Source of the DNA: Rhodospirillaceae bacterium
Lineage (GTDB): Bacteria > Pseudomonadota > Alphaproteobacteria > SMXQ01
Direction of reading: 5' to 3'
Length of the DNA: 64,000 nucleotides
NCBI GenBank assembly: GCA_947474495.1
Contig: CANJIM010000004.1
Coordinates: 517 to 64,516 of the forward strand
Position 1 is the first letter of the stretch. Each line of letters opens with the position of its first letter. Below, piece after piece: positions 3,411 to 63,445 of the stretch. Both the position numbers and the translations under genes were made by a program. The notes under the pieces were generated by a model that was given only the letters and a program-made list of their open reading frames with translations, had not been told where the DNA came from and ran no database searches.

Positions 3411-3488
3411 GGACTTAGATGAATGTTTCACGTGAAACATAGCGCCGCGATTGACGTGTTTTCCACAGGTCCCTAGATTGCGCCGCCC

Positions 3489-5386: not shown

Positions 5387-6049
5387 GTGGCCGATTCTCC
5401 CTTGAGCCCTGAAATATTTGAGCAATCTGGCATTGTTTCACGTGAAACAATGACCCGGCTGCAAACCTATGCGGCGTTGCTGGCCAAATGGCAGCCGGCG
5501 ATCAATCTCGTCGGCAAAGACACGCTACCGGACCTATGGCGGCGTCACATGCTCGATTCCGCACAGCTCGCCCCCCATATCCCGGCAGCACGTCCCGATG
5601 GCTCACCTTTGACCCTTGTCGATTTGGGATCGGGAGCCGGATTTCCCGGTCTGGTGCTGGCGATCATGGCGAGCGATACGAACCGCCAATGGCAAGTGAA
5701 TCTCGTCGAATCCGATATGCGCAAATGCGCGTTTCTCTCGACCGTGGCGCGCGAGACCAGGACCGACGTGAAAATCCATCCGGCGCGCATCGAAAAACTC
5801 GCGGCTTTTTCGGCCGATGTCGTCACCGCGCGTGCCCTGACGCCGCTCGAGTCGCTGCTCGCTTATGCCGAACCCTTTCTGATGCCGAGCAGCCACTGCC
5901 TTTTTCTAAAAGGGGCGACGGCGGCGGATGAATTGACCGCTGCGGCCAAATCCTGGAAAATGACCGTTGAACAGTTGCCCAGCCGATCCGGCCCAGCTGG
6001 CAACCTCTTGCACATCAGGGATATTTCCCGTGTCAAATCAAGACCTTAG
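5387..6049 (+). CDS. rsmG: 16S rRNA (guanine527-N7)-methyltransferase RsmG (GidB)
   Basis: SAM-MTase motif LVDLGSGAGFPGLVLAI, ~220 aa, positioned between mnmG and parA. Confidence 0.9.
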   Translation: MADSPLSPEIFEQSGIVSRETMTRLQTYAALLAKWQPAINLVGKDTLPDLWRRHMLDSAQLAPHIPAARPDGSPLTLVDLGSGAGFPGLVLAIMASDTNRQWQVNLVESDMRKCAFLSTVARETRTDVKIHPARIEKLAAFSADVVTARALTPLESLLAYAEPFLMPSSHCLFLKGATAADELTAAAKSWKMTVEQLPSRSGPAGNLLHIRDISRVKSRP

Positions 6050-7948: not shown

Positions 7949-8995
7949 TCAACGCGCCGCGCGTCTCGCGGCTGTCGCCAGCTGCATCAGCACGCGCGCC
8001 GTGATCGCCTCGGACGGCATGCCGGTCGTCTTGCAATCCATCTCGGCTTTCAGCAGCAATTCGAGGGCGCGGCCGATATTGCTGGCCGGCCATTGCCGCA
8101 GCGCCATCTTGAACGGCGTCACCGCCTTGAAGAACAGCGGCGGGCGCAACGCTTTGATCGCCCCATCGGCATTGGCGCCTTCGGCCATTTTGCCGGCGAC
8201 GAAATGCAACCGCTCGAAGTGGCGCGACACCGCGCGCAGAATGGCGATGGCATGGGTGCCCTCGCGCGTCACGCGTTCGTAGGTGCGGTCGAGCTCGGCG
8301 ATATCGCCACGCGCCACCGCCATGGCGATGTCGTCGACGCCTTGCTCTGACGAATCGCCGACGCAGGCCTCGGCGTCGGCCAGCGTCACCTTGCCGGACG
8401 CGTCTCCATTCAAGGGGGCACAATATATGGCGAGCTTTTCGAGCTCGCGGCGCGTCAGCATGCGGTCGCCGCCGAGACGGCCGACGAGAAACTCGAGGGC
8501 GTCGGGCGCGACCTCCAGCTTGTTCTGGCGCAGGCTATCGCGGATGACATCGGCGAGAGTCGATTCGTCGTCGAGATAGCAAGCGATGGCCGCGCCCTTG
8601 GGATGATCTTCGAACAGGCTGCGCAGCTTGGATGAGGGCGACAGCAACCCGGCCTCGATAACGACGAGCGAATCGGCCTTCACCTCTTCGTCGAGCAGCT
8701 CCTCAAACAGCTTGGCATGGCTATCGAGCGCCCCCCGCAAACGAACCGCCCGCCGGCCGCCCATCAGCGACATGGCATTGGCCTCGTCGCTCAGCAGCGC
8801 GGGATCGTCTTTCAGTTCGGCGGCGGAAATCTCACGTGTGCGGAAGGGGTCGTCGATCGCGCCGGCGACCGCCTTGATCAAGGCTTCGGCGCGCTCGCGC
8901 ACCAGGCCGCTGTCGGGACCGTAGAGCAGCACAGCGCGCACGGCGGCATCGGGCTTGCGCGCGAAACCGTCGGCTCTGGCCGCCTGAATCTTCAC
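7949..8995 (-). CDS. holA: DNA polymerase III delta subunit
   Basis: N-terminus AVLLYGPDSGLVRERAEAL is typical of HolA. It has the conserved leuS-lptE-holA order. Confidence 0.85.
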   Translation of the reverse strand: MKIQAARADGFARKPDAAVRAVLLYGPDSGLVRERAEALIKAVAGAIDDPFRTREISAAELKDDPALLSDEANAMSLMGGRRAVRLRGALDSHAKLFEELLDEEVKADSLVVIEAGLLSPSSKLRSLFEDHPKGAAIACYLDDESTLADVIRDSLRQNKLEVAPDALEFLVGRLGGDRMLTRRELEKLAIYCAPLNGDASGKVTLADAEACVGDSSEQGVDDIAMAVARGDIAELDRTYERVTREGTHAIAILRAVSRHFERLHFVAGKMAEGANADGAIKALRPPLFFKAVTPFKMALRQWPASNIGRALELLLKAEMDCKTTGMPSEAITARVLMQLATAARRAAR

Positions 8996-20893: not shown

Positions 20894-22044
20894 ACCGGCG
20901 CGATCACCTTCATCGCCAGCAGCGAGCGCAGCAGCTCGCCGCGCGCCGCGTCGGCGATCTGCGGGAAGGCGGCGGCGAGCGCGGCATCGGCGAACACCTG
21001 TTGTCTGATGATCCAGGCGACGGCGCTATTGAACCCCGGCGGGATCGGCGTGCTTTTGCCGGCGCGCGCGAGCGCCCAACCGCCGCCTTGCGCCACCACC
21101 TTGAAGTCAGCGGCCGTGACGCGATAGCGGGGCGCCGCCGCGCGATAGCGATATGCGTCCTGGAATTGGCATAGCGCGGCCAGATTGACTGGGTCGCTCG
21201 CCATCTCGGCGAGCCGTTGGCCGAGCGCCTGCAGCCGCGCGGCGAAGGCGGCCTCGCCGGCGCCCGCCTCGCGGCCGTGGCGGCGCGGCAGATCGGCGCG
21301 GAACAGCGGCTCCTCGACGGCGCGGGCGAACAACGCGCTGACGACATCGAGGCCGATGACGGCGACGGCGCCGAAGGCGATATGGATGGTGCGCTCGGAG
21401 AGCGCGACGGCGTCGTGATACTGGCCGCGCGGCAAATAGAGAAGATCGCCGGGCTTCATCAGCACCTCGAGGGCGATCCTGCCCTTGGCCTGCTCGTGAA
21501 AGGCGCGCGTCTGGCTCTTGAAGGTCGGATGCTCGATCGGATTGTTGATGCGTCCTTCGTAGATGCGCCACAGCTTCTCGCCATGGACATGCACGGCAAA
21601 GACGTCATGGGTGTCGTAATGGCTGGCGAAAGCTTGGCGCTCGCGCGGGGAGCTGTAGAGATTTGCCTGCACCTTCGATTCGAGGGCGTCTTCCAGCGTC
21701 TGTGCCAGCCCAGCGACCGCGGCCAGGCCGGGTGCCGCCATGTCGATGTCGTTGAGCACGAGGCTGGCGCCACGGTTCAGCAGCGCGCGGACCTTCGGCG
21801 CATCGGGCGCGCCGTTGGCGGCAAGATATTCGGTGCCTGGCACCATGGCGCTGTCGCGCGCCATTTGCAGCGATTGTGCGCCCCACAGGCCGGGTGCGGC
21901 GATGAGTTCGTCGAGCTTGGCGCGTGACATGATGTCGGAAAATTTGTCCGCCTCGCCGGGCACATGCAGCGGCGCGTGGCCGTGATGGCGCTCGAAGAAT
22001 TGTGCCGGCGTGATCGGCGCGAGAATGTCGGTGAAGGAGACCAT
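20890..22044 (-). CDS. JmjC/cupin-4 family (ribosomal-oxygenase-like) Fe(II)/2OG oxygenase domain protein
   Basis: HYDTHDVFAVHVHGEKLW ... YLPRGQYHDAV fits the HxD...H jelly-roll pattern of Cupin_4/JmjC proteins. Confidence 0.6.
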   Translation of the reverse strand: MVSFTDILAPITPAQFFERHHGHAPLHVPGEADKFSDIMSRAKLDELIAAPGLWGAQSLQMARDSAMVPGTEYLAANGAPDAPKVRALLNRGASLVLNDIDMAAPGLAAVAGLAQTLEDALESKVQANLYSSPRERQAFASHYDTHDVFAVHVHGEKLWRIYEGRINNPIEHPTFKSQTRAFHEQAKGRIALEVLMKPGDLLYLPRGQYHDAVALSERTIHIAFGAVAVIGLDVVSALFARAVEEPLFRADLPRRHGREAGAGEAAFAARLQALGQRLAEMASDPVNLAALCQFQDAYRYRAAAPRYRVTAADFKVVAQGGGWALARAGKSTPIPPGFNSAVAWIIRQQVFADAALAAAFPQIADAARGELLRSLLAMKVIAPV

Positions 22045-22069
22045 GGGTTTAATCTAGCGCTGTTGGCGC

Positions 22070-22809: not shown

Positions 22810-23694
22810 TTGTCAGAAGCGCACGCGCCGGGCGGCACAGCAATCGTTTATTATCCCGAAATCAAGCCCTGGATCATTAAGGATTTGGCCGAACGATTCT
22901 GCGCGGAATTCACCAAGCGCGGTCATCGCAGCGCGCTGATCAATAGCCCGCTCGCAGGCTATGACACTTACTATCACTTCAATTATCTACAGTGTCGCGG
23001 CGTCTTGCCCAATACGAAAAATTTCACATACGTCACCCATGTGAATACGCCGGCCAAACTCTCGCTGCTGCGCGGCCAGGCGGAGGCCGGTATCGTCGGC
23101 ATTTGCATGTCGGAAGATACCGCGCGTCGCCTGCGCGAGCTCACCGGATTCAACCGGTTCGTGGGGTTGACGCCGCCGGCGCTGCGCTACGGGGAGTTTC
23201 CCGATCTCAGCATCTTGATCGCGAGCCGGCTCTATGACGACGGCAGAAAAAACCTGACGACGATGAAAGAGGCTTTGGACCGCTTGAGGGGACCAAACAG
23301 CGTTTTGAACATTATGGGCTCGGGCTGGGAAGAGTTCATTGCGGCCTATAAAGATCAATTCAAAGAGATCAATTACCACCCGGTCTTCTCGGAGCGGACT
23401 TACCTGGAGCTGATCGAGGCGACGAACCTGCTAATATACTCAGGATTCGACGAGGGCGCGATCTCTGTGCTGGATTATCTCGCGAGCGGCAAACGCGTTT
23501 TGACGACCGCTCAAGGCTATCACTTGGATTATGCGGATTGCGCAAATCTATATTTGTTTTCCGACGCGCCGACACTCGATGCGCAAATCTCGAAAATACA
23601 AATGGAAATCAACCTCGCTCGGGCCCAGCATAAAAGAGTGACAGACTGGGACGGCTATTGCGCGCGGCATATCGAGCTGTTCGGCAAAAGCTAG
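22810..23694 (+). CDS. Putative glycosyltransferase (GT-B C-terminal-domain-like); first gene of the low-GC island
   Basis: RLYDDGRKNLTTMKEALDRL ... VLNIMGSGWEEF ... YLASGKRVLTT resembles the GT4 C-terminal domain. GC is clearly lower than the genome background. Confidence 0.5.
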   Translation: MSEAHAPGGTAIVYYPEIKPWIIKDLAERFCAEFTKRGHRSALINSPLAGYDTYYHFNYLQCRGVLPNTKNFTYVTHVNTPAKLSLLRGQAEAGIVGICMSEDTARRLRELTGFNRFVGLTPPALRYGEFPDLSILIASRLYDDGRKNLTTMKEALDRLRGPNSVLNIMGSGWEEFIAAYKDQFKEINYHPVFSERTYLELIEATNLLIYSGFDEGAISVLDYLASGKRVLTTAQGYHLDYADCANLYLFSDAPTLDAQISKIQMEINLARAQHKRVTDWDGYCARHIELFGKS

Positions 23695-23695
23695 C

Positions 23696-24631
23696 TCATA
23701 CGGTCGCCGGCGGTTTTCGGTCGAGATAGCCGAGCAGGACATCGACCATGATCTTGCGGTTTCCCTTTAGATGAAAAATGAATTTGCTATCGAGTTGGGC
23801 CTTGTTGTAGCGGACGGTTTCCTCGAAGGAAAAATTAAACCTATCTACGGGAAAGACACAGATCCGGGGCTTTAGAGCTAATTTCGCGGCTTTCTTCTTA
23901 TCTAAGAAAACGCTGGTGATCGTATTGAGACTTAGCTGGCCGCCGCGCCAGCGCCGGATGTCTCCGTAATAGTCGGCAAAAAACTTTTCTTGGACCAACT
24001 TTTCGTATGTCGCGACATACGAATTGAAGAACGCTTTTACCAAACCTGTTCGGGGGGGGGCGGCAAAAATAACCCCTTCGTTGAACGGCATAAGATTAGA
24101 CGCGATTCTTAGCGTTACACCTATATCGAAATTCTTTGTAAACAGGTTGCTCAGGTTCAATCCGACGAAGGTGTCGCTATCGAGAAACGCGGTTTGATGA
24201 TCGAACATGCTCGATCTGACGTAGGCCGCCATCGCATAGGCCCTTTCGTATAGTGGCTGTGCGGCGTTGACGTCGAGGACCACCCTGACAATGTTTTCGC
24301 TTTCGGGAATGTTGAAGTGCGGATCGTTCGATACGAAGATGATTCGCAGATTTTTAAAAAGACGGAGCGTGTTCGATAAAGATTTCCAAATAATATAATT
24401 GTAGTCGTATTTACCGAGATCGAGATTCAAGTCGGGATATTTTAGTAGCTGATTTTCAGGCGCCATCGCGACGTGGAACATAAATATATTACAATTTATT
24501 TCTTCTGCCGCCGCGCGATACGCAGAATTGAAACTTGACTTGAGGGCATCAATTTTCGCATTCGCGGCGGGTTCGGGCGTCAAACTAAAACAGGGTGAGG
24601 CCGCCCTCAATACTTGTTCAATGGGAATCAT
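23696..24631 (-). CDS. Hypothetical sugar-transferase-like protein (low GC) containing a C9 homopolymeric tract in the coding strand
   Basis: 311-aa intact ORF with a DSDTF DxD-like motif and AT-rich codon usage. The poly-G run at 24052-24060 encodes AAPPRTG. Confidence 0.5.
   Translation of the reverse strand: MIPIEQVLRAASPCFSLTPEPAANAKIDALKSSFNSAYRAAAEEINCNIFMFHVAMAPENQLLKYPDLNLDLGKYDYNYIIWKSLSNTLRLFKNLRIIFVSNDPHFNIPESENIVRVVLDVNAAQPLYERAYAMAAYVRSSMFDHQTAFLDSDTFVGLNLSNLFTKNFDIGVTLRIASNLMPFNEGVIFAAPPRTGLVKAFFNSYVATYEKLVQEKFFADYYGDIRRWRGGQLSLNTITSVFLDKKKAAKLALKPRICVFPVDRFNFSFEETVRYNKAQLDSKFIFHLKGNRKIMVDVLLGYLDRKPPATV
24052..24060. repeat. Homopolymeric G9 (C9 on the coding strand) tract inside the CDS 23696..24631
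   Basis: Directly visible as cggggggggg/cgg at 24051-24063. Confidence 0.9.
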
Positions 24632-24668
24632 TTGCTTCTCTGGTTCCGATAAATTTCTTTAAGTGACG

Positions 24669-25448
24669 TTAGTGGGCAACGAGGACGGCATAGCCGTACC
24701 AGGTCGTCTCGTCGAGGCCCTTGTCCGTCATCCACCCACCTGTTTCGCAGATTTTGAAGCCGCAGTGCGAAGCGTGACGTTCAATTTCCGGCGCGAACAA
24801 ATAGCGCATGATATGGGTTTCGTGGATGTGCGCCGCCTCGGATCTTAAACCGTTAGATATGGTCACGTCGTAATGAACCGCCACTATGTTGCGTTCGACG
24901 TCCATCTCTGGCGTCGCGGTGCGGATGACTTGCGTTCCGTCCTTGCTGAGGCTCTTGACGCGTCTCTCGGGCCTATCGTGGAGTACCGCCGGACCGTACC
25001 AAAAATCGAAAATAAAAACGCCTCCCGGCCTTAGAGCGGCCCGTGCCGTCTTGAAAAATCCAGCGAGCGATTCGTCGGTCGTTTGGTAATTGACGACATG
25101 GAACAAGGAGACTGCCACATCGAATATGCCCAAGCCGACAGCGTTCGACACGTCCGCTTGGACCAGCGTCACACGCGGACGCGTGTTTTCTGGAAGACGC
25201 GAGACGCTGGCGCGGGCCAAATCCAGCATGCCGGGGCTTATATCGACGCCCTTGACCACATAACCGGCCGCAGCGAACTGGGTCGTGTGGCGCGCGTTGC
25301 CGCAACCGAGATCGATGATCGATTTTGCCTGCGGGGCGTATGCAGAGATTTTGGCTTTAACGAACTCGGACTCTAAAGCGTAGTCCTTGTCCGTATAAAA
25401 CAGTTCGTAATACAGGGCATATCGATCAAAGATCGCCACGGAGGACAT
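24669..25448 (-). CDS. Class I SAM-dependent methyltransferase, TylM1/DesVI-like (predicted sugar N,N-dimethyltransferase)
   Basis: N-terminus FDRYALYYELFY..KDYALESEFVKA and IIDLGCGNARHT (motif I) match the N-terminal pattern of dTDP-aminosugar N-methyltransferases. Confidence 0.6.
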   Translation of the reverse strand: MSSVAIFDRYALYYELFYTDKDYALESEFVKAKISAYAPQAKSIIDLGCGNARHTTQFAAAGYVVKGVDISPGMLDLARASVSRLPENTRPRVTLVQADVSNAVGLGIFDVAVSLFHVVNYQTTDESLAGFFKTARAALRPGGVFIFDFWYGPAVLHDRPERRVKSLSKDGTQVIRTATPEMDVERNIVAVHYDVTISNGLRSEAAHIHETHIMRYLFAPEIERHASHCGFKICETGGWMTDKGLDETTWYGYAVLVAH

Positions 25449-26544
25449 CCTTCAGAGCCGTCGCGGACCGATCGATTTCGTCCTTGGTCGACCCGACGCC
25501 GCTGGGGAGATAAAAGCCGCGGTCCGCGAGCCGCTCCGACTGGGGGTAGCTCTCACCCGCGAAGAGGCCCAAATCGCGAAGCGCCGGCTGCTTGTGCATG
25601 GGCCAGAAGAAATGTCGAGCATCGACGCCTTTGCGCCGCAGGGCCGCGATCGCGGCGGCGGCATCGAGAGGCGCCTCATCGGCCAGGACGACGCCGAATA
25701 CCCAATAGATATTTTTGGCATAATCTGTTTTTGCCTCGGGCAATCGCAATAGAGGTTGGCTGTCGAGACGCTCCCGGTACCAGCGGCCGATCTGGCGCTT
25801 CTTTTCAATCGTGCGCGCAATGACCTCGAGCTGCGCCACGCCGACGGCGGCTTGGAGGTTGCTCATTCTGAAATTCCAGCCTAGCTCGGCGTGGATGTAG
25901 CGCCGCTCCTTGTCGAAAAATAGGTTTCGCGCCGCGCGGCAGCGCTCGGCCAGATCGGGATCGTCGGTCAAGACCATGCCGCCTTCGCCGGTTGTGACGT
26001 GCTTGTTGGGATAAAAGCTGACCGTGCTGATGTCGCCCAGCGATCCGACCTTGCGTTCCTTATATTGTTGGCCTTGCTGTTCGGCGGCATCTTCGATGAT
26101 CTGCAAGCCCCGCTCACGGGCGAGCGCGAAGATAGGATCCATGTCGACTGGTAGGCCGAAGATATGGACGACCATGATGGCTTTGGTTTTGGCCGTGATG
26201 CGCGCCGCGACTTGCCGGACATCCATGTTCCAGGTGACTGGATCGCAATCGACGAGAACGGGCGTCGCGCCGGCGCGTACGATGGCCGCCGCACAGGAGA
26301 TGATCGTGAAAGACGGCAAGATGACTTCATCGTCCGGCCCGATCTTCAGCGCGGCCACGGCGATGTCGAGGGCGCAGCTGCCGTTGCAGACGGCGATGCC
26401 ATGCTTTCGGCCGACGAATGCGGCGAACTCAGCCTCGAGCCGTTTGACGAACGGCCCCTCGGAAGAAATCCAACCGGAATCGATGCATTCGTTCAGGTAT
26501 TTTTTTTCGTTGCCCTCGAGGAGCGGCCGATTCACCGGGATCAT
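25426..26544 (-). CDS. DegT/DnrJ/EryC1/StrS family PLP-dependent sugar aminotransferase (FdtB/TylB-like)
   Basis: NRPLLEGNEKKYLNECIDSGWISSEGPFVKRLEAEFAAFVG, a typical DegT N-terminus. The start is set at an internal Met (the track ORF extends to 26613). Confidence 0.8.
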   Translation of the reverse strand: MIPVNRPLLEGNEKKYLNECIDSGWISSEGPFVKRLEAEFAAFVGRKHGIAVCNGSCALDIAVAALKIGPDDEVILPSFTIISCAAAIVRAGATPVLVDCDPVTWNMDVRQVAARITAKTKAIMVVHIFGLPVDMDPIFALARERGLQIIEDAAEQQGQQYKERKVGSLGDISTVSFYPNKHVTTGEGGMVLTDDPDLAERCRAARNLFFDKERRYIHAELGWNFRMSNLQAAVGVAQLEVIARTIEKKRQIGRWYRERLDSQPLLRLPEAKTDYAKNIYWVFGVVLADEAPLDAAAAIAALRRKGVDARHFFWPMHKQPALRDLGLFAGESYPQSERLADRGFYLPSGVGSTKDEIDRSATALKDVLRGDL

Positions 26545-26548
26545 GGGT

Positions 26549-26980
26549 TTAATCGAAATTGAATGTGTCGGGCGGAGGACAGTCGAATCGTGTCTTGTCG
26601 TCGTCCCCGACATAGGGGCCTTGTTTGATCTCGACCATGTTCAGCTCTTCGAGCACCTCGAAACCATGACCGCCCGAGATCAGCAGAATGACGTCGCCGG
26701 CGCATAGAATGCGGCTCGTCTTGTACGCGTTGATCTGATCGTAAAAATCTACGCGCAGCCGTCCTTTGCGGATGAAGAGCGTTTCTTGCGTATAAAGAAC
26801 TTCTCGGCGGATAGGATTGTGCGTATGGGCCGGAATCAATTTCCCCGATGGGTAAGACATGGCGCCCATCTGCTGGGAAAAATTATTCTGCGTAAAAAAA
26901 TGAATGCCCGGCTCGTTAAAATCGGCAGGCAGAATAATGGCGTAGAGGATTGAGTCGATATATATGTATTCTTGCTGCAT
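26549..26980 (-). CDS. dTDP-4-keto-6-deoxyhexose 3,4-ketoisomerase (FdtA/QdtA/Tyl1a family, WxcM-like cupin)
   Basis: ~140-aa cupin with HTHNPIRREVLYTQETLFIRKGRLRVDFYD and DVILLISGGHGFEVL. Its size and motifs are typical of FdtA. Confidence 0.65.
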   Translation of the reverse strand: MQQEYIYIDSILYAIILPADFNEPGIHFFTQNNFSQQMGAMSYPSGKLIPAHTHNPIRREVLYTQETLFIRKGRLRVDFYDQINAYKTSRILCAGDVILLISGGHGFEVLEELNMVEIKQGPYVGDDDKTRFDCPPPDTFNFD

Positions 26981-33362: not shown

Positions 33363-34096
33363 CGGGCGACATGCAGAGCGTCGGCGACATCTTCGCTGGC
33401 CATCGCCGCGCCTGGGACAAGAAGCGCGCGCTGCGGCTCTATTACCAGCGTGAGATCTTCGAGCGCATCGTCGCGCAATTGCGTCCCGGTCCGACGCTGG
33501 AGATCGGCACCGGGCCCGGCTTCTTCGCCGATTATCATCCCGGCATGACCGGGCTCGATATCGCCGCCTTTCATCCCGGCGTCATTCCCGGCGACGTGCA
33601 TGACATGCCGTTTCCTGATGCCAGCTTCGCCAATGTCGTCGGCGTCGATGTGCTGCATCATCTGGCCAAGCCCGGCCGCGCCTTGAGCGAAATCGCCCGC
33701 GTGCTGCAGCTGAACGGCCGGCTGGTGCTGGTCGAGCCGTGGACGGGCCCGGTCGGACGCTTGTTCTACCGTTACCTGCATCATGAAGATTGCAGCCCGG
33801 TCACGGAGCCTTGGACGCAGGCCTTCGCCGGCGGCAAGGATGCCATGGACGGCAACGCGATGATTCCCTGGACGCTGTTCGCTGCACGGCTCGGTGAATT
33901 GTCGGCGCATGCGCCGCTGCGCCTCGCTTATTGCCAGCCGTTCGGTATCGCCGCCTATGCGGCGACCGGCGGCTTCAAGGACATCGGCCTGCCCTGGCCG
34001 GTGATCGATGCCTTGTGCCGCATCGAAGCCCTGTTGCCGGACGAGATCCACCGCGTCGCGGCGCTGCGCGCCCTGTTCGTCTTGGAGCGGCTTTAA
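33359..34096 (+). CDS. Class I SAM-dependent methyltransferase (Methyltransf_11-like)
   Basis: TLEIGTGPGFFA motif I. The GTG start overlaps the upstream stop (GTGA). Confidence 0.65.
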   Translation: MTGDMQSVGDIFAGHRRAWDKKRALRLYYQREIFERIVAQLRPGPTLEIGTGPGFFADYHPGMTGLDIAAFHPGVIPGDVHDMPFPDASFANVVGVDVLHHLAKPGRALSEIARVLQLNGRLVLVEPWTGPVGRLFYRYLHHEDCSPVTEPWTQAFAGGKDAMDGNAMIPWTLFAARLGELSAHAPLRLAYCQPFGIAAYAATGGFKDIGLPWPVIDALCRIEALLPDEIHRVAALRALFVLERL

Positions 34097-35907
34097 GGCG
34101 CGAGGGTTGCCAGCTCCGGCAGCGCCGGATCGCGCCGCAGGCAGAGCGCGGCGGGGCCGGGCGGCAGCCCCGTCGTTGGCGAGGCCGTCAGCCAGACCGG
34201 GTTTGCGAGCGGCGAAACCGCGAGGCCGATCTGGGTCGGCGCATCGTCGGCGATTCGGTTCATCAACGGATTCTTCCAGATGTTCGTCGCGCGCACCGAC
34301 GCCGCGCGGAGGCCCCGGCAATCCGCCGCGCCGATCGGACAGATGGTCACCGCCGCCGCGACCCCGCCGGAAAACATCTCGCTGCCATCCGGGCAGCGAC
34401 GCTCCGACGTCAGGATGCCGCGCGGTTCGTGAAGAAGCGCGACGACGATGGGCAGCAGCAAAAGACAGGCGAGCCCCGCCGCCAGCGGTGGCGCGGCGGC
34501 CACCGCCGCCGTTGCCGTGAAGCTCGTCTTGGCCAGCCAGCGTTGCGCGACATAGGTGCCGACGGCGACGAAGGCGGCGCTGAAGCCGTGGGTCGCGGCG
34601 AAGACGCGGCTGCCGCCGTCGCCGAGGAACGGCACCGACAGCAGAATGCCGGCGAGGCCGGCCAGCAGCAGCGCCGAGAGATTGGCGCTGCGGGTGCGCC
34701 AGCAGGCGCCGACGCCGACCAGCGCCAGCAGCAGCACCAACCCGCGCAGCAGCATGTTCGGCACATATTTGTGCCAGCCGGTGTTGATCAGGAAATCGTT
34801 GTAGCGTGCGCCGATGCCCTTGATGAGATCGAATGGCGCCGCCTGCATATGGGCCACGGCGGCGCGATAGGCGCCGGCCGCCTGTTCGGCTTCGCTCATG
34901 CCGAGATAGTGCGGGAAATCGACGAAGAACCGCGTCCAGGGCTCGCCGCCGATGGCCAAGCCGTACAGCGTATAAGCAAAATTGCTGAAGGCGAGCTGGT
35001 CGGGCGCGCCGACCAGAATCGTCAAAGCCTTGTTGGCGGCGAAGCCGACGGCACAGGCCGCGAGGCCGAGTCCGGTCAGCGGCCAGGAGAGCCGGCTACC
35101 CGCGGCGCGAAAGCGCCAGCCGCACCATAGCGCGAGCGCCGGCAAGGCGAACAAGGCCCCGGCGCGCGTCACCAGAGCGCAGCTGAGAAGCGCGAGGCCA
35201 ATGAGGACAAGAACGCGCCGGCCCGACGTGGCCCCGTCGGCGAGCAGCACGAAGGCGGCGCCGCCGAGCGCGAAGCCGAGATTTTCCGACATCGTCGTGC
35301 CGAGCGTCAGATGTATGAAGGCGAACAGCGCGGCAAAGGCGGCGGCGGCGCTGGCGAAGCCGAAGCGGCGGAACAGGCTCGCCGTCACCAGCAGGGCAGC
35401 TGCCATGCTGCCGGCGCTGAGGATCACCACGCTGCGGCGCAAGCCATCCGCCGTGAGCGCGAACAGACCGGCGAGCTGCGTCGTCGCAAAGGGCCGCCGC
35501 GTCGTCCATTCACTCAGGCGTCCGCTATCGAGATAGCGCATGGCGCCGTCGTAATAGTTCTGCGCGTCGGAGGCGGGCAGCAGGCCGAAGAACAGCACGT
35601 CGCTGCTGACGCCGCTGTCCATCTTCAAGGCGAGGGCGATGCCGAAGGCGGCAGCGCCAAGCGCGAGAGCGATAAAGGGGGCCGTGGCGGCGAAGCTGTT
35701 GCCGATCTCATATCGCATGCGTTGAAGGACGATGGCGACGGCGGCGGCGCACAAGGCGGCGCCGACGACCACATTGGCGAATTGCAAAGCCAGCCAGGGC
35801 GCGTCGAACAGCGGACGGCCGATCACGCCGCCGCCATAGCGCGACGCCAGCAGCGGTGCTAGAAAGGCGCCGAGGGCGAGCGCGGCGGCGGCGAGGGCGC
35901 GCCTCAC
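34093..35907 (-). CDS. Large polytopic membrane protein, putative GT-C-fold (ArnT/PMT/GtrC-like) glycosyltransferase. The start is the GTG at 35907, which overlaps the stop of the upstream gene.
   Basis: ~604 aa with more than 12 predicted hydrophobic helices and large loops. The first ~295 codons of the track ORF 34093..36792 are a frame artefact over the flippase-like gene. Confidence 0.5.
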   Translation of the reverse strand: MRRALAAAALALGAFLAPLLASRYGGGVIGRPLFDAPWLALQFANVVVGAALCAAAVAIVLQRMRYEIGNSFAATAPFIALALGAAAFGIALALKMDSGVSSDVLFFGLLPASDAQNYYDGAMRYLDSGRLSEWTTRRPFATTQLAGLFALTADGLRRSVVILSAGSMAAALLVTASLFRRFGFASAAAAFAALFAFIHLTLGTTMSENLGFALGGAAFVLLADGATSGRRVLVLIGLALLSCALVTRAGALFALPALALWCGWRFRAAGSRLSWPLTGLGLAACAVGFAANKALTILVGAPDQLAFSNFAYTLYGLAIGGEPWTRFFVDFPHYLGMSEAEQAAGAYRAAVAHMQAAPFDLIKGIGARYNDFLINTGWHKYVPNMLLRGLVLLLALVGVGACWRTRSANLSALLLAGLAGILLSVPFLGDGGSRVFAATHGFSAAFVAVGTYVAQRWLAKTSFTATAAVAAAPPLAAGLACLLLLPIVVALLHEPRGILTSERRCPDGSEMFSGGVAAAVTICPIGAADCRGLRAASVRATNIWKNPLMNRIADDAPTQIGLAVSPLANPVWLTASPTTGLPPGPAALCLRRDPALPELATLAP

Positions 35908-36857
35908 GAGGGCTGCTCCCCAGGACGGACAGGCAGCTTCAACCACAGGATCGCGCCGGGCAGGCTCGCCGCCAGGATCATCAGGCCGAAAGCGATCGAC
36001 GCGGCGAGAATGTCGCTGTCGGGCCAATCCATGCCGGTCAAGGCGACGACCATCGCGCCTTCGCGCAAGCCCCAGCCGGCGACCGACACGGGGATCATGG
36101 TGATCAGCATGACCATGGGCACGACGGCGAGGCACAGCCAGGCCGAGATCGGCAGGCCCAAGGCGCGGAACAGCAGGAAGAAGATGGCAACGCTCAGCAG
36201 ATGAATGACGAGGCCGAGCGCCAGGGCCAGCCCGGCGGCGCGGCCATCGGCGAAGAGGTGGCGGCCGGTGGCGGCGAGGCTGGCGAGCCACGGCCAGCGG
36301 CCGAGCAGCTTGTCGCAAAAGGCGCTGGCGCGCCCGAGAGTCAGGAACAGCAGGGCCGCGCCCCACGCCGCCGCGAGCAGGAGGATCGCGCTGATGCGCA
36401 GCGTCTCGTTCGGCAACAGGGCGAGGAATTGCGCGAAGCCGACGAGAATCAGCAGGGTCAAGGCGATCACGCCGATGACGCGGTCGAGCAAGGCGGCCTC
36501 GACGGCGCGGCCTAGCGTCATGCCGCGGCGGGTCAGCAGCCAGGCGCGGATCGCGTCGCCGCTGATGAAGGTGACGAGCAGTTGGCTGAAGAAGCCGCCG
36601 ACCAGGGTGGCGCGCAAGGCAAAGCCTTGGCTGATGCGGGCGCCGCACAGGCCGACGACCAGCACGAAGCGCCAGCCGGCGATCGCCACCTGAAGGAAGG
36701 CCAGCAGCAAGGCGGCAGCAACGATGGCCGGATCGAAGCGGCCGAGCGCAGCGAAGGCGTCGCCGAGATCGACGCGCGTCGACAGCCACCACAGCAGCGC
36801 CGCCGTCAAACCGACCTTGCCGGCGATGGCCGCGCCGGCGACGACCCGCTTGTTCAT
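35904..36857 (-). CDS. Flippase-like / lysylphosphatidylglycerol-synthase-TM-domain (UPF0104, YbhN-like) membrane protein
   Basis: Eight hydrophobic segments; WLLTRRGMTLGRAVEAALLDRVIGVIAL is typical of LPG_synth_TM-family proteins that accompany GT2 enzymes. Confidence 0.6.
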   Translation of the reverse strand: MNKRVVAGAAIAGKVGLTAALLWWLSTRVDLGDAFAALGRFDPAIVAAALLLAFLQVAIAGWRFVLVVGLCGARISQGFALRATLVGGFFSQLLVTFISGDAIRAWLLTRRGMTLGRAVEAALLDRVIGVIALTLLILVGFAQFLALLPNETLRISAILLLAAAWGAALLFLTLGRASAFCDKLLGRWPWLASLAATGRHLFADGRAAGLALALGLVIHLLSVAIFFLLFRALGLPISAWLCLAVVPMVMLITMIPVSVAGWGLREGAMVVALTGMDWPDSDILAASIAFGLMILAASLPGAILWLKLPVRPGEQPS

Positions 36858-52603: not shown

Positions 52604-52678
<75 letters not shown>

Positions 52679-58661: not shown

Positions 58662-60364
58662 TCCGTCCCGCGCTCGCCCTTGCCGCCTTCCTGTTAGGGG
58701 GATGCGCCGGGCCACTCCCCCTCGCCGATCCCGCCGACATGATCCTGACCGGGGGCCGCGTCGTCACGCTCGATGCCGATTCGTCCGTCGTTCAGGCGCT
58801 GGCGATCAAGGGCGAGCGCATCATCGCCGTCGGCAGTGACCGCGACATTGCCGCGCGGGCCGGGGCGCGGACTCAGCGCATCGATCTGGCGGGTCGCACC
58901 GTCATTCCCGGCCTGATCGATTCGCACATTCACGCCATTCGCGCCGGCCTGACCTATGAAGCGGCCGCCGATTGGACCGGGGCGGCGAGCATTGCCGACG
59001 CGATGGCGCGCATTGGCGCGCGCGCGGCGGTCACGCCGCCCGGCCAGTGGATCGTCGTCTCGGGCGGCTGGACCGAACAGCAATTCGCCGAGCGGCGGCG
59101 GCCGAGCCAGGCCGAGCTGATCGCTGCGGCGCCCGATCACCCGGTCTATGTGCAACTGTCCTATCGCGCCGCGCTACTGACGCCGGCCGGCTCTCGCGCG
59201 CTCAACATCGCCAGCGATGCCGATCTGCCGTCCGGCGCGCGTCGGGAACAGGATGCGGCTGGCGCCTTCACCGGCTGGATCGAAGGGCCGAGCCCGAGCA
59301 TCGTCGCGCTGTTCGCGCGGTTGCCGAAGCCCGATCTCTCGGCGCGGATGGCCAGCACGCGCGCCTTCTTTCGCGAGCTCAATCGCCTCGGTCTGACCGG
59401 CGCGCTCGATCCCGGCGGTCATAACCTCGCGCCCGAGGATTATGACGTACCGTTCGCCTTGGCGCGGGCGGGCGATCTCAGTCTGCGGCTCGATTACAGC
59501 ATCTTCGCGCCGCGCCCCGGTCGCGAGTTGCAAGACCTGCAATCGTTGGCGCGCGACATGCCGTTGCAGCATAGCCGGGACGGCCTGTTGCGCTTCAATG
59601 GCGTCGGGGAAGCGGTCACTTGGGGCATGTATAACAACGAGACGCCGAGCGAGGCGCAGAAGGACGATTACTATCGCGTGGCCCGTTGGGCGGCAGAGCA
59701 GGGACTGACCCTGACGCAGCATTGGAACAGCGATAAATCCGTCCATCACCTGCTTGAGGTTTTCGAACGCGTGAACCGCGACCTGCCCCTGGCGCCGCTG
59801 CGCTGGTCGATCGCCCATCTGCACGATGCGTCGGTGGAAACGCTTGCGCGCATGAAAGCGCTCGGCATCGGCTGGCTGATGCAGGACGGCACCTATTTCG
59901 CCGCGCCTTTGTTTCTCGCGAACCGCGCGCCGCAATTGCGCCGCCAAAGCCCGCCCATCGTCAGCGCCATAGCGATGGGCTTGCCGGTCGGCGCCGGCAC
60001 CGATGCCGACCGCGTGATGGATTACAATCCGTTCGTGGCGTTGCGTTGGATGCTCGACGGCTTGACGGTGGGCGGCGAGCCGACGCGGGACGCGGCGCAG
60101 ATCCCGACGCGCGAACAGGCGCTGCGGCTTTATACCCAGGGCAGCGCTTGGTTTGCCTTCGATGAGGCACGCCGGGGCAGCTTGGAGATGGGCAAGCTGG
60201 CGGATCTCGCCGTTCTCGACGCCGATTATTTCACCGTGCCGACCCCCGATATCGCACGCATCCGGTCGCTTCTCACGGTGGTCGGCGGACAGGTCGTCTA
60301 TGCCGCTGAACCCTACGGAAAAAGCCGCGAGAGCGCGGAACTTTTTCCTGAGCGGCGGCGTTGA
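58640..60364 (+). CDS. Amidohydrolase-3 family metal-dependent hydrolase (predicted lipoprotein)
   Basis: Lipobox LLGGCAG; metal-binding GLIDSHIHA motif; 574 aa. Confidence 0.75.
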   Translation: MPERARLIRPALALAAFLLGGCAGPLPLADPADMILTGGRVVTLDADSSVVQALAIKGERIIAVGSDRDIAARAGARTQRIDLAGRTVIPGLIDSHIHAIRAGLTYEAAADWTGAASIADAMARIGARAAVTPPGQWIVVSGGWTEQQFAERRRPSQAELIAAAPDHPVYVQLSYRAALLTPAGSRALNIASDADLPSGARREQDAAGAFTGWIEGPSPSIVALFARLPKPDLSARMASTRAFFRELNRLGLTGALDPGGHNLAPEDYDVPFALARAGDLSLRLDYSIFAPRPGRELQDLQSLARDMPLQHSRDGLLRFNGVGEAVTWGMYNNETPSEAQKDDYYRVARWAAEQGLTLTQHWNSDKSVHHLLEVFERVNRDLPLAPLRWSIAHLHDASVETLARMKALGIGWLMQDGTYFAAPLFLANRAPQLRRQSPPIVSAIAMGLPVGAGTDADRVMDYNPFVALRWMLDGLTVGGEPTRDAAQIPTREQALRLYTQGSAWFAFDEARRGSLEMGKLADLAVLDADYFTVPTPDIARIRSLLTVVGGQVVYAAEPYGKSRESAELFPERRR

Positions 60365-60400
60365 AAAAAGCCGGGGACAACATCCGGTGAATCCTGCCGG

Positions 60401-62179
60401 ATGGACCCTGTGACCTTCGATCAAATCGCTATTTTCGCCATCCTCGCTGCGGCCCTCGGGCTTTTCGTGTGGGATCGCATCCGCTATGACCTGGTCGCCA
60501 TGCTGGCCCTGATGGCGGCCGTCGCCTGTGGGGTGGTCTCCCCCGCCGCCGCCTTCCACGGCTTCAGCGACGATATCGTCATCATCATCGCCTCGGCTCT
60601 TGTGATCAGCGCGGCGGTCGCCAAATCCGGCCTCGCCGAGGCGGCGCTCCGGCCGGTCGCCGGCTGGATGAAAAGCAGCGAGATGCAGGTCGGCGTGCTC
60701 GCGTCGATCGTCGCCGTGCTGTCGGCCTTCATGAAAAATATCGGCGCTTTGGCGATCATGATGCCGATCGCCTTTCAGCTGTCGCGGCGCAACGAAACGC
60801 CGGTGTCGCGCGTCCTGATGCCGCTGTCCTTCGCCGCGCTGCTCGGCGGCATGATGACGTTGATCGGCACCTCGCCCAACATCATCGTTTCGAAGATGCG
60901 CCAGGAAATCCTTGGCGAGCCCTATGGCATGTTCGATTTTTTCCCGGTCGCGGCGGTTCTGACCGTCATCGGCGTCGTGTTTCTGATCTTCGGCTGGCGG
61001 CTCTTGCCGCGCCGGGATGAAGCCGACGCCAAGGACGCGTTTTCCGATGACAATTACCAGACTGAGGTGCGGCTGCCGGAAGAGAACCCGCTGGTCGGCA
61101 AAACGGTCGCCGATTTCGAGGCGCTGGGCGAAGGCGATATGACGGTCGCCGCGATCCTGCGCGAGAACAATCGCCGTTACGTGCCGAACGCCCACTGGAC
61201 CTTGTTCGCGGGCGACATCCTTGTCGTACAGGGTGATGCCGGCGCGCTGGAGAAAATCGTCGCCGAAGCCAAGCTCGAGTTGGTCCATGACCGCGAGATG
61301 CCGGATGAAGACGAAAAGAAAACCGATCAAGCGGTGATGGAGGCGGTCATTCCGCCCGATTCGCTGCTGGTCGGTTCGACGGTCGAGCAATTGCGCCTGC
61401 GCGACCGCTACGGCCTCAACCTTCTGTCGCTCAGCCGCCGCGGTGGCAACATCCGCAATCGCCTGCAGCGCGTGCGCCTGCAGGCCGGCGACGTCATCGT
61501 GCTGCGCGGCGCGGTCAAGAGCGTCAATGACGCGCCGGCCGTGCTCGGTTGCCTGCCGCTGGCCGAGCGCAATCTGCGGCTCGGCGAGCGGCGCCATCGC
61601 TATCGCGCCGCGATCATCCTCGCCATTGCCATGGGGGCGGCGGCGAGCGGCACGGTATCGGTCGCCATCGCTTTCTTCGGCGCGGCGGTCGCCATTCTGG
61701 CCACCGGCGCCTTGACGTTGAAAGAGGCCTATCAGGTCATCGAGTGGCCGATCCTCGTTCTGCTCGGCGCCTTGATTCCGGTCAGCGACGCGCTGCGCAC
61801 CACGGGCGGGGCTGAGTTGATCGCCGCCGGACTTGCGGTCGTCGCCGACATGGTGCCGCCGACCGGCGCAGTCGGACTGATCCTTGTCGCCGCCATGGCG
61901 GTCACGCCCTTTCTCAACAACGCGGCGACCGTGCTGGTGATGGCGCCGATCGGCGCCAGCTTGGCGCAACGCCTCGGGCTCAACCCCGACCCGTTCCTGA
62001 TGGCGGTCGCGGTCGGCGCAGCGAGCGATTTTCTCACGCCGATCGGCCATCAATGCAACACGCTGGTGATGGGACCGGGCTGCTACCGCTTCAACGATTA
62101 CTGGCGCCTCGGCCTGCCCTTGTCGGTGCTGGTCGCCACGCTCGGCACCTTCCTCATCGTCATGGTCTGGCCGCTGTAA
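60401..62179 (+). CDS. SLC13/DASS-family anion permease with two central TrkA-C (RCK_C) domains
   Basis: N- and C-terminal transporter repeats (GTSPNII, NNAATVLVMAPIG) flank two TrkA-C-like segments (GKTVADFEAL..., GSTVEQLRLRDRYGLNLLSL). Confidence 0.8.
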   Translation: MDPVTFDQIAIFAILAAALGLFVWDRIRYDLVAMLALMAAVACGVVSPAAAFHGFSDDIVIIIASALVISAAVAKSGLAEAALRPVAGWMKSSEMQVGVLASIVAVLSAFMKNIGALAIMMPIAFQLSRRNETPVSRVLMPLSFAALLGGMMTLIGTSPNIIVSKMRQEILGEPYGMFDFFPVAAVLTVIGVVFLIFGWRLLPRRDEADAKDAFSDDNYQTEVRLPEENPLVGKTVADFEALGEGDMTVAAILRENNRRYVPNAHWTLFAGDILVVQGDAGALEKIVAEAKLELVHDREMPDEDEKKTDQAVMEAVIPPDSLLVGSTVEQLRLRDRYGLNLLSLSRRGGNIRNRLQRVRLQAGDVIVLRGAVKSVNDAPAVLGCLPLAERNLRLGERRHRYRAAIILAIAMGAAASGTVSVAIAFFGAAVAILATGALTLKEAYQVIEWPILVLLGALIPVSDALRTTGGAELIAAGLAVVADMVPPTGAVGLILVAAMAVTPFLNNAATVLVMAPIGASLAQRLGLNPDPFLMAVAVGAASDFLTPIGHQCNTLVMGPGCYRFNDYWRLGLPLSVLVATLGTFLIVMVWPL

Positions 62180-63157: not shown

Positions 63158-63445
63158 CCCTGTGCGCCATTTTTTAAGACACTGACCCTTCAATGCGATT
63201 CCGTCGCTCTTGCCGTTCCGCGCCAAATTTCATATACATGCCGGACCAGGCCGGGCCCCTCTGACAGCCCTTCTACGGCTGTGATGTCGGACTGGACAAC
63301 AGGAGTGGCCCGCCGACCTTCTCACTTTACATGGCGGTTCCGCGTCTTTGTGTCAGTTCGCAAACTGATGTGAAGGCTGGCGCGTCTGTGTTCGTGGCGA
63401 CTCGCCGCGCAGGCCCCTCCTTATAAAAATAGTAGCGGGTACGCT

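Follow-up and report, generated by a model that had tools for sequence, protein, structure and literature searches.

The 64,000-nucleotide stretch analysed here (the window; positions 517 to 64,516 of contig CANJIM010000004.1 in the Rhodospirillaceae bacterium assembly GCA_947474495.1) carries a run of nine G at 24052-24060 (local sequence ctgttcGGGGGGGGGcggc; positions 24040-24075 read CCAAACCTGTTCGGGGGGGGGCGGCAAAAATAACCC), which on the coding strand forms a C9 tract inside a gene for a putative glycosyltransferase and which a first-pass annotation had proposed as a phase-variation switch. Re-reading the sequence and translating the open reading frame (ORF) gave the tract, the ORF, its low GC content and the tract peptide all as described there. 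The features of this gene on which the argument depends are as follows (aa, amino acids; nt, nucleotides; MAG, metagenome-assembled genome).

23696..24631, minus strand: putative glycosyltransferase of GT-A fold from an uncharacterised family, 311 aa, the last gene of a co-directional cupin-DegT-methyltransferase-GT-A set.
24052..24060, minus strand: G9 on the plus strand, C9 on the coding strand; codons GCC GCC CCC CCC CGA, residues A189-R193; candidate slipped-strand site.
24002..24023, no strand assigned: perfect 22-nt palindrome TTCGTATGTCGCGACATACGAA in the GT-A gene, spanning codons S-Y-V-A-T-Y-E; in the coding sense C9 lies 28 nt upstream of it.
24351..24360, minus strand: T5A5 on the coding strand (CTT TTT AAA AAT), the site of a +1 T frameshift in MAG GCA_947480435.1.

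Read on the coding strand, GCC GCC CCC CCC CGA ACA GGT encodes A A P P R T G at codons 189-195, so that the mononucleotide repeat itself lies at codons 190-193 of an intact ORF that runs uninterrupted for 311 aa. The C run occupies nt 572-580 of the 936-nt frame, 61% along the gene length and not at its 5' end. We take M1 as the start because homologues align from residue 1, while some gene callers pick M51 on identical DNA. The gene has a GC content of 47% (57% at third codon positions, GC3) against about 65% for the window, and lies in a stretch from 22.8 to 27.0 kb over which GC is depressed to 50-59%. In the predicted structure and a 59-sequence family alignment, the two tract prolines fall in non-conserved columns at the junction of strand 183-190 with helix 192-214. 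A palindrome as long as the one downstream of the tract turns up anywhere in the window in 5% of block shuffles, and RNA stability at 24002-24023 showed nothing unusual; at the same site an inverted repeat of 8+8 nt around a 4-nt loop is present in the closest other allele (L008), and none in the sister-lineage allele of L009.

The 311-aa ORF gave no Pfam, NCBIfam or PDB sequence match, whether searched as a single protein or as the 59-sequence profile, and Pfam run on the 59 family members yielded nothing usable beyond one faint GT8 match (E 0.029, in 1 of the 59); that is, by Pfam, by NCBIfam and by solved homologues it belongs to no described family. A word-indexed search nevertheless collected homologues in 81 clusters, and at 50% identity the family numbers 1410 representatives when E up to 0.001 is allowed, or 566 at E up to 1e-10, none of which carries a name. 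An AlphaFold (AF2) model built on the family alignment has a predicted local distance difference test score (pLDDT) of 95.7 and a predicted template-modelling score (pTM) of 0.94, and when it was compared with the PDB by Foldseek each of the top 50 matches was a GT-A enzyme (probability 1.0, E about 1e-7, template-modelling score (TM) 0.40-0.49). The best of these are mostly retaining enzymes, namely PBCV-1 A64R, the GT6 members alpha-1,3-GalT, GTA, GTB and BoGT6a, GT8, glycogenin, XXYLT1 and WbbM. The model consists of the single Rossmann-like alpha/beta/alpha domain of the GT-A fold, and a DxD motif (D151-S-D153) that is invariant in the 59 sequences follows directly after strand 146-150; further invariant blocks are N184-E-G-V, W228-R-G-G-Q232, N266, H287, G290 and K293. 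Similar to A64R, GT6, GT8 and glycogenin (PDB 2p73, 5nre, 3tzt, 4ayl, 6eqj), the window protein therefore combines this fold with an invariant DxD after a beta-strand, but it is only 8-16% identical to them and has invariant WRGGQ, NEGV and HLKG motifs of its own. The earlier description of a sugar-transferase-like product is thus supported from fold and motif and not from sequence family: the protein family is undescribed while its modelled fold is familiar, no member with a characterised function turned up, and sugar-transfer activity is putative.

Within the window the G9 is the sole run of G or C of at least 7, the next longest being 6-mers. An independent and identically distributed (i.i.d.) model of the window composition predicts 32 runs of at least 7 and 3.4 of at least 9, against one observed run of at least 7, so that long G/C runs are strongly avoided here and G9 is an outlier. 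Codon usage of the gene itself gives a different perspective. CCC accounts for 10 of the 16 Pro codons of the GT-A gene, and in a within-gene synonymous-codon shuffle that preserved the encoded protein and drew on the codons already used by the gene (200,000 trials) a G/C run of at least 9 arose in 8.8% of trials (P = 0.088) and one of at least 7 in 40%. The run is exceptional for the genome, yet given the peptide and the gene that encodes it, it is not statistically unusual. When all four bases are considered, 3 of the 4 homopolymers of at least 7 in the 64-kb window lie within the 4.2-kb island described below, and for the two A/T runs the low GC of the island is part of the explanation:

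26500-26507: T8 on the plus strand, A8 on the coding strand, encoding E-K-K near codons 13-15 of the 372-aa DegT call; L009 carries this run as well (2985-2992).
26894-26900: A7 in the cupin gene.

The consequences of a change in tract length were followed in silico. Loss of one C (C8) gives a protein of 197 aa ending in FAAPPEQVW, and gain of one (C10) gives 244 aa; C7 and C11 give 243 and 198 aa, respectively, and C6 and C12 keep the frame, with one Pro fewer or one more. All of the frameshift products lack the invariant C-terminal third (Y205, Y209, WRGGQ, N266, H287 and K293). C9 is therefore the ON state, as had been claimed together with truncation by a plus or minus 1 change, because C8 and C10 truncate at 197 and 244 aa and drop the invariant motifs, and at the level of prediction a reversible loss of the protein is what the tract would allow. 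Since the GT-A gene is the last of its co-directional set, a polar effect of such a frameshift would not be expected.

Phase variation as proposed would show itself as tract-length variation, and for this we compared seven public contigs, under these sample or assembly accessions:

L001: ERZ27263779
L002: SRR6787039
L003: NCBI MAG GCA_947480435.1
L004: ERZ27277814
L005: ERZ28612958
L006: SRR6754092
L007: SRR6787038

Their identity to the window is 99.6-100%, with zero single-nucleotide polymorphisms in the island, and the tract is exactly C9 in 7/7; all are consensus assemblies from a population that is nearly clonal, in which minority length variants could be missed. Exact look-up of eight predicted variant products (C6, C7, C8, C10, C11, C12) in a collection of 15 billion proteins found none of them, and the 90%-identity protein cluster has only four members: the full-length protein of 311 aa, the version called from M51, and a pair of 92 and 195 aa. 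A scan of JGI metagenomes with the tract flanks around a variable gap, N{5,14}, gave 0 matches. The 92-aa and 195-aa pair comes from L003 (contig CANKDZ010000112.1, 4466-4471, equivalent to window 24356-24360), where T5 has become T6 and CTT TTT AAA reads CTT TTT TAA, splitting the gene into two ORFs at a site away from C9. This T6 is the sole indel across 58.5 kb of aligned public sequence, and it may be a real OFF allele or an assembly error. The claim of phase variation was therefore not borne out by these contigs or by the protein collection.

A comparison with related alleles points in the same direction. The closest other allele (L008, 74% identical at the protein level) has GCC AAT CCT TCC CGG at the tract, encoding ANPSR, and the sister-lineage allele (L009 and L136-L139, 68%) has GCC GGC GCG GCA CGC, encoding AGAAR. 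No G/C run of at least 7 occurs in the GT-A genes of L008 or the sister lineage, and as judged from these alleles the C9 tract is specific to the window allele. Interrupted, non-homopolymeric codons in orthologues had been named beforehand as an outcome that would speak against a switch, and they are what the 74% and 68% alleles carry. Two sister-lineage loci (L137, 3459-4394, and L139, 1674-2609, minus strand) additionally have G230D within the invariant WRGGQ, giving RWRDGQ, possibly a missense allele with loss of function; in L136 and L009 the motif is unaltered.

The gene sits in a small island that is flanked by a thiE-like gene and yggS and that is syntenic in the sister lineage. Its parts, with protein identities to that lineage, are:

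Flank: yggS; 99% identity.
26549..26980, minus strand: cupin, weakly WbuC-like, 143 aa (NCBIfam TIGR04366, E 2.3e-5, below cut-off); 94-95%.
25426..26613, minus strand: DegT/DnrJ/EryC1-type sugar aminotransferase (Pfam PF01041, E 6e-108; NCBIfam LegC-family and related models below cut-off); 94-99%.
24669..25448, minus strand: S-adenosylmethionine (SAM)-dependent methyltransferase, 259 aa, cassette partner of GT-A (Pfam Methyltransf_25/11/12); 72-73%.
23696..24631, minus strand: GT-A; 68%.
22810..23694, plus strand: compact GT-B (GT4-like) glycosyltransferase, 294 aa (homologues with PF13692; AF2 pLDDT 89.1); 94-96%.
Flank: thiE-like gene; 88-93%.
23700..25400, no strand assigned: divergent block that covers exactly GT-A and the methyltransferase, with 63-73% nt identity to the sister lineage against 90-97% in its flanks (sliding-window comparison with L009 and L136).

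Because identity drops exactly over 23.7-25.4 kb, the GT-A/methyltransferase pair appears to be a cassette exchanged by recombination within a conserved syntenic island. The alignments show this exchange more solidly than phase variation, and they make the pair the strain-variable part of the island. The gene had also been called imported, which needs qualifying: the island is syntenic in the sister lineage, and only the GT-A and methyltransferase pair has been replaced. The four minus-strand genes (cupin, DegT, methyltransferase and GT-A) are tightly packed and co-directional, the GT-B and GT-A genes are convergent with stop codons 1 nt apart, and gene callers place the DegT start at 26544 (372 aa). 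The GT-B protein matches SenB, GlgM, PimA and BshA in Foldseek with probability 1.0. A promoter and terminator scan together with a repeat search over 22.0-27.8 kb found nothing above shuffle expectation and no repeats bounding the island. A 16-nt context, GATTAAACCCATG on the coding strand, is shared at 15/16 positions between 22039-22054 and 26539-26554, where it surrounds the start codons of a JmjC-like gene and of the 372-aa DegT call, and may be due to chance.

Elsewhere in the family, 98 of 126 loci (L010-L135) have an AsnB-like glutamine amidotransferase ahead of the family gene, and family genes are often fused or adjacent to methyltransferases. In Dongiaceae the family gene lies within a flagellar cluster, and in Dongia soli (L011, 1808-14670) this includes FlgK, FlgE and FlgH, hinting at a role of the family in flagellar or surface-glycan modification. 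As to surface modification by the product, which would be its putative role, the observations are a GT-A fold beside GT-B, DegT and methyltransferase genes in the window, and flagellar or AsnB-like loci for family members. A five-gene set resembling that of the window turns up again, in rearranged form, in a Beijerinckiaceae MAG. Among all named loci, blastn with the window as query gave no close relative, and a scan of genome contigs gave best matches of 39% identity in Dongia/Rhodospirillaceae MAGs. LeuS has its best named matches in 'Alphaproteobacteria bacterium' MAGs (92% and 74%), followed by cultured Pelagibius, Kiloniellaceae and Zavarzinia at about 67-69%, and hence agrees with the high-GC alphaproteobacterial host proposed in the first-pass annotation, here among uncultured Alphaproteobacteria.

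Taken together, these data make the C9 run a real, young and lineage-specific slippage hotspot and a candidate switch of a known kind, and with modest confidence we read it as a latent or incipient contingency tract that is fixed ON, and not as an established, selected phase-variation system. We keep the claim at 'candidate' because length polymorphism, which is the defining testable feature, was not seen. By its length and composition the tract is an intrinsic indel hotspot, and we infer both slippage itself and its rate. Slipped-strand mispairing with a reversible frameshift is the only sensible way in which it could act: during replication C9 would become C8 or C10 and the frame would shift after Pro192/193, the 197- or 244-aa product without the C-terminal motifs would leave the transferase OFF, and a second slip would return it to ON. 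The tract itself most likely arose incidentally, through T-to-C and other substitutions at a non-conserved strand-to-helix junction of a CCC-preferring gene, and it probably persists because selection against slippery runs would be weak in an accessory gene. That gene would be dispensable and strain-variable, part of a small surface-glycan modification island, with a presumed glycan phenotype. An incidental origin is favoured because there is no length variant, the tract is absent from orthologous alleles, it lies mid-gene and codon usage offers an explanation. What keeps the switch hypothesis alive is the rarity of the run in the genome, the cassette context, the circulation of OFF alleles and a parallel in a distant member of the family.

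This parallel is found in Betaproteobacteria bacterium SAG AH-736-P17 (L047; JAOINB010000016.1, protein MDA9689866.1), a single-cell genome whose family protein is 32% identical to that of the window. At 8071-8079 this gene has an in-frame G9 of its own, AGG GGG GGG GAT (RGGD, residues 72-75), at a different position and in a 37% GC context, where relatives at 65% identity (L143-L148) encode KGGD as AAA GGT GGT/GGA GAT. The run is built from rare GGG codons and the synonymous shuffle gives P = 0.007, and judged by codon usage it makes a better candidate than the run in the window for a tract under selection. Its predicted G8 and G10 products were not found by exact look-up in the protein collection. 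Across the family, runs of at least 8 occur twice in 110 distinct genes (129 kb) compared with once in 827 kb of flanks (Poisson 0.011); once the ascertained window case is removed this leaves 1 further gene in 129 kb and P is about 0.14 (a Poisson estimate from the same counts), which is not significant.

The main alternative is that C9 is an established contingency locus, kept by selection to turn a surface (possibly flagellar) glycan transferase ON and OFF, which would imply standing C8/C9/C10 heterogeneity and bet-hedging against phages or grazers, like the poly-G genes of Campylobacter and Neisseria. We consider this possible but doubtful. Several points nevertheless count for it and against an incidental tract. 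G/C runs of at least 7 are purged elsewhere in the window (1 against 32 expected in the i.i.d. model), and the sole exception falls in the 1.7-kb strain-variable GT-A/methyltransferase cassette, which makes up 2.7% of the window and recombines; a gene of a strain-variable cassette is the kind in which selected contingency tracts occur. OFF-type alleles circulate, and the segregation of loss-of-function-type alleles (T6 and G230D) would be compatible with fluctuating ON/OFF selection. A second G9 arose independently in L047. The frameshift consequences are clean, and no gene lies downstream in the co-directional set. The monomorphism of the tract is only weak evidence against high-frequency switching, because the seven contigs are near-clonal consensus assemblies and polyC/polyG loci of 9 bp show a between-strain variability of only 0.15-0.21 (Lin & Kussell, PMC3315296). 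A length of 9 is within the highly variable range for such loci (PMC3315296). The occurrence of family genes in flagellar or AsnB-like glycan loci is reminiscent of the flagellin glycosylation locus of C. jejuni, which has genes with homopolymeric tracts (PMC3068675), and high GC is no barrier, given the homopolymer phase variation of the M. tuberculosis complex (PMC10334774). Against selection stand the uniform C9 of the seven contigs with no variant product in the protein collection, and no excess or maintenance of the tract could be detected: it is missing from the 74% and 68% alleles, the synonymous shuffle is not significant (P = 0.088), and the same holds for the family enrichment without the ascertained case (P about 0.14). 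Moreover, the tract is mid-gene, when repeats near protein termini are the ones that are enriched and more variable (Lin & Kussell, PMC3315296), and the only frameshift allele observed arose at T5 and not at C9.

A more far-reaching proposal, which we think unlikely, is that free-living uncultured planktonic bacteria use poly-G/C switches on this uncharacterised GT-A family. The window C9 and the L047 G9 would then be recent convergent acquisitions, the window switch would ride on the GT-A/methyltransferase cassette, and swapping and phase variation would jointly diversify a flagellar or surface glycan, probably against phages.

Programmed recoding, in which C CCC CCC C would serve as a ribosomal or transcriptional slippage site and yield full-length and truncated proteins from one gene, is very improbable. 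The run does fit a slippery pattern of the X XXY YYZ type, and CCC-C is frameshift-prone in some bacteria. The alternative frames, however, end in unconserved tails of 4 and 51 residues, a 91-nt region folds no better than its shuffles (z = 0.06), the palindrome is 28 nt off and too far for a typical spacer, and the orthologues are without the site; programmed frameshifting was rejected on the lack of a stable downstream structure and on the short, unconserved tails. Homopolymers are error-prone on some platforms, but a sequencing or assembly artefact, with a different true length or a pseudogene behind it, is effectively refuted and has a negligible probability, as seven independent public contigs from different samples and assemblers all have C9 with the frame intact and the protein aligns end to end with its homologues.

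The incipient tract that we favour can be set beside known systems. In Neisseria, lgtA, lgtC and lgtG carry poly-G, and LgtC is a GT8 retaining GT-A enzyme. Similar to these genes, that of the window encodes a transferase of GT-A fold with a DxD motif and has a G/C run in its coding sequence, and its closest folds include the retaining GT8 and GT6 enzymes; switching is, however, proven experimentally in Neisseria, whereas the window gene is a candidate only and has no detectable sequence homology to GT8. Phase variation of glycan genes through poly-G/C is also found in Helicobacter and is functionally like the proposed switch. Mycobacteria are not known to have canonical MutS/MutL. Within the M. 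tuberculosis complex (about 65% GC), intragenic G/C runs, such as the 7C run of glpK and others, undergo reversible frameshifts (PMC10334774, PMC6667613), and because these cases exist, high GC content is no obstacle to homopolymer switching; there, recurrent indels are seen across thousands of isolates, whereas none was observed at the window tract. The poly-G genes of Campylobacter jejuni (lipooligosaccharide, capsule and flagellin glycosylation; Cj1295; PMC3068675, PMC3025981) are alike in having an intragenic G/C run of about 8-10 nt in a glycan-modifying gene, methyltransferase and aminotransferase neighbours, truncation by a plus or minus 1 change and a strain-variable locus. In C. jejuni, however, tract lengths vary within and between cultures and there are many tracts per genome, compared with one in 64 kb and no variation in seven contigs here; the window protein has no sequence relationship to the C. 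jejuni proteins, and its host is an alphaproteobacterium that is free-living, uncultured and high in GC. A literature search on homopolymer phase variation in Alphaproteobacteria found no relevant example, which is not proof of absence. If switching were true, homopolymer phase variation of glycosyltransferases would extend beyond host-adapted pathogens to an environmental alphaproteobacterium of high GC content that is uncultured and known only through metagenome assemblies and MAGs, and it would provide a first clue to the function of a large GT-A family without a name, with about 1400 representatives at 50% identity. The mechanism is a textbook one, and its key evidence, length heterogeneity, is absent from the public contigs.

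The remainder of the window has the gene content of an origin-proximal chromosome region, with mnmE, mnmG, parB, parS palindromes, leuS, DUF3576, ftsK and amtB. Perfect palindromes at 3423-3440 and 5431-5452 hold the parS-like core TGTTTCACGTGAAACA and adjoin mnmE, mnmG and parB, as is expected for origin-proximal centromere sites. Between 14891 and 20893 lie three tandem TPR-rich proteins (554-623 aa), with C-terminal regions that have no Pfam match, plus an unassigned ORF of 241 aa; among the TPR genes, two are paralogues of about 73% nt identity, and the set adjoins a Porin_4 gene. Neither of the large ORFs at 34093-36792 (899 aa) and 59174-62053 (959 aa) gave a Pfam match at E up to 1e-5, and AT skew is strong in the region of the 899-aa ORF (0.34-0.35 at 35-37 kb). 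Rfam matches at gathering level are a tRNA at 52604-52675 and a terC RNA motif (53 bits) at 63243-63299, just downstream of a pirin-like gene.

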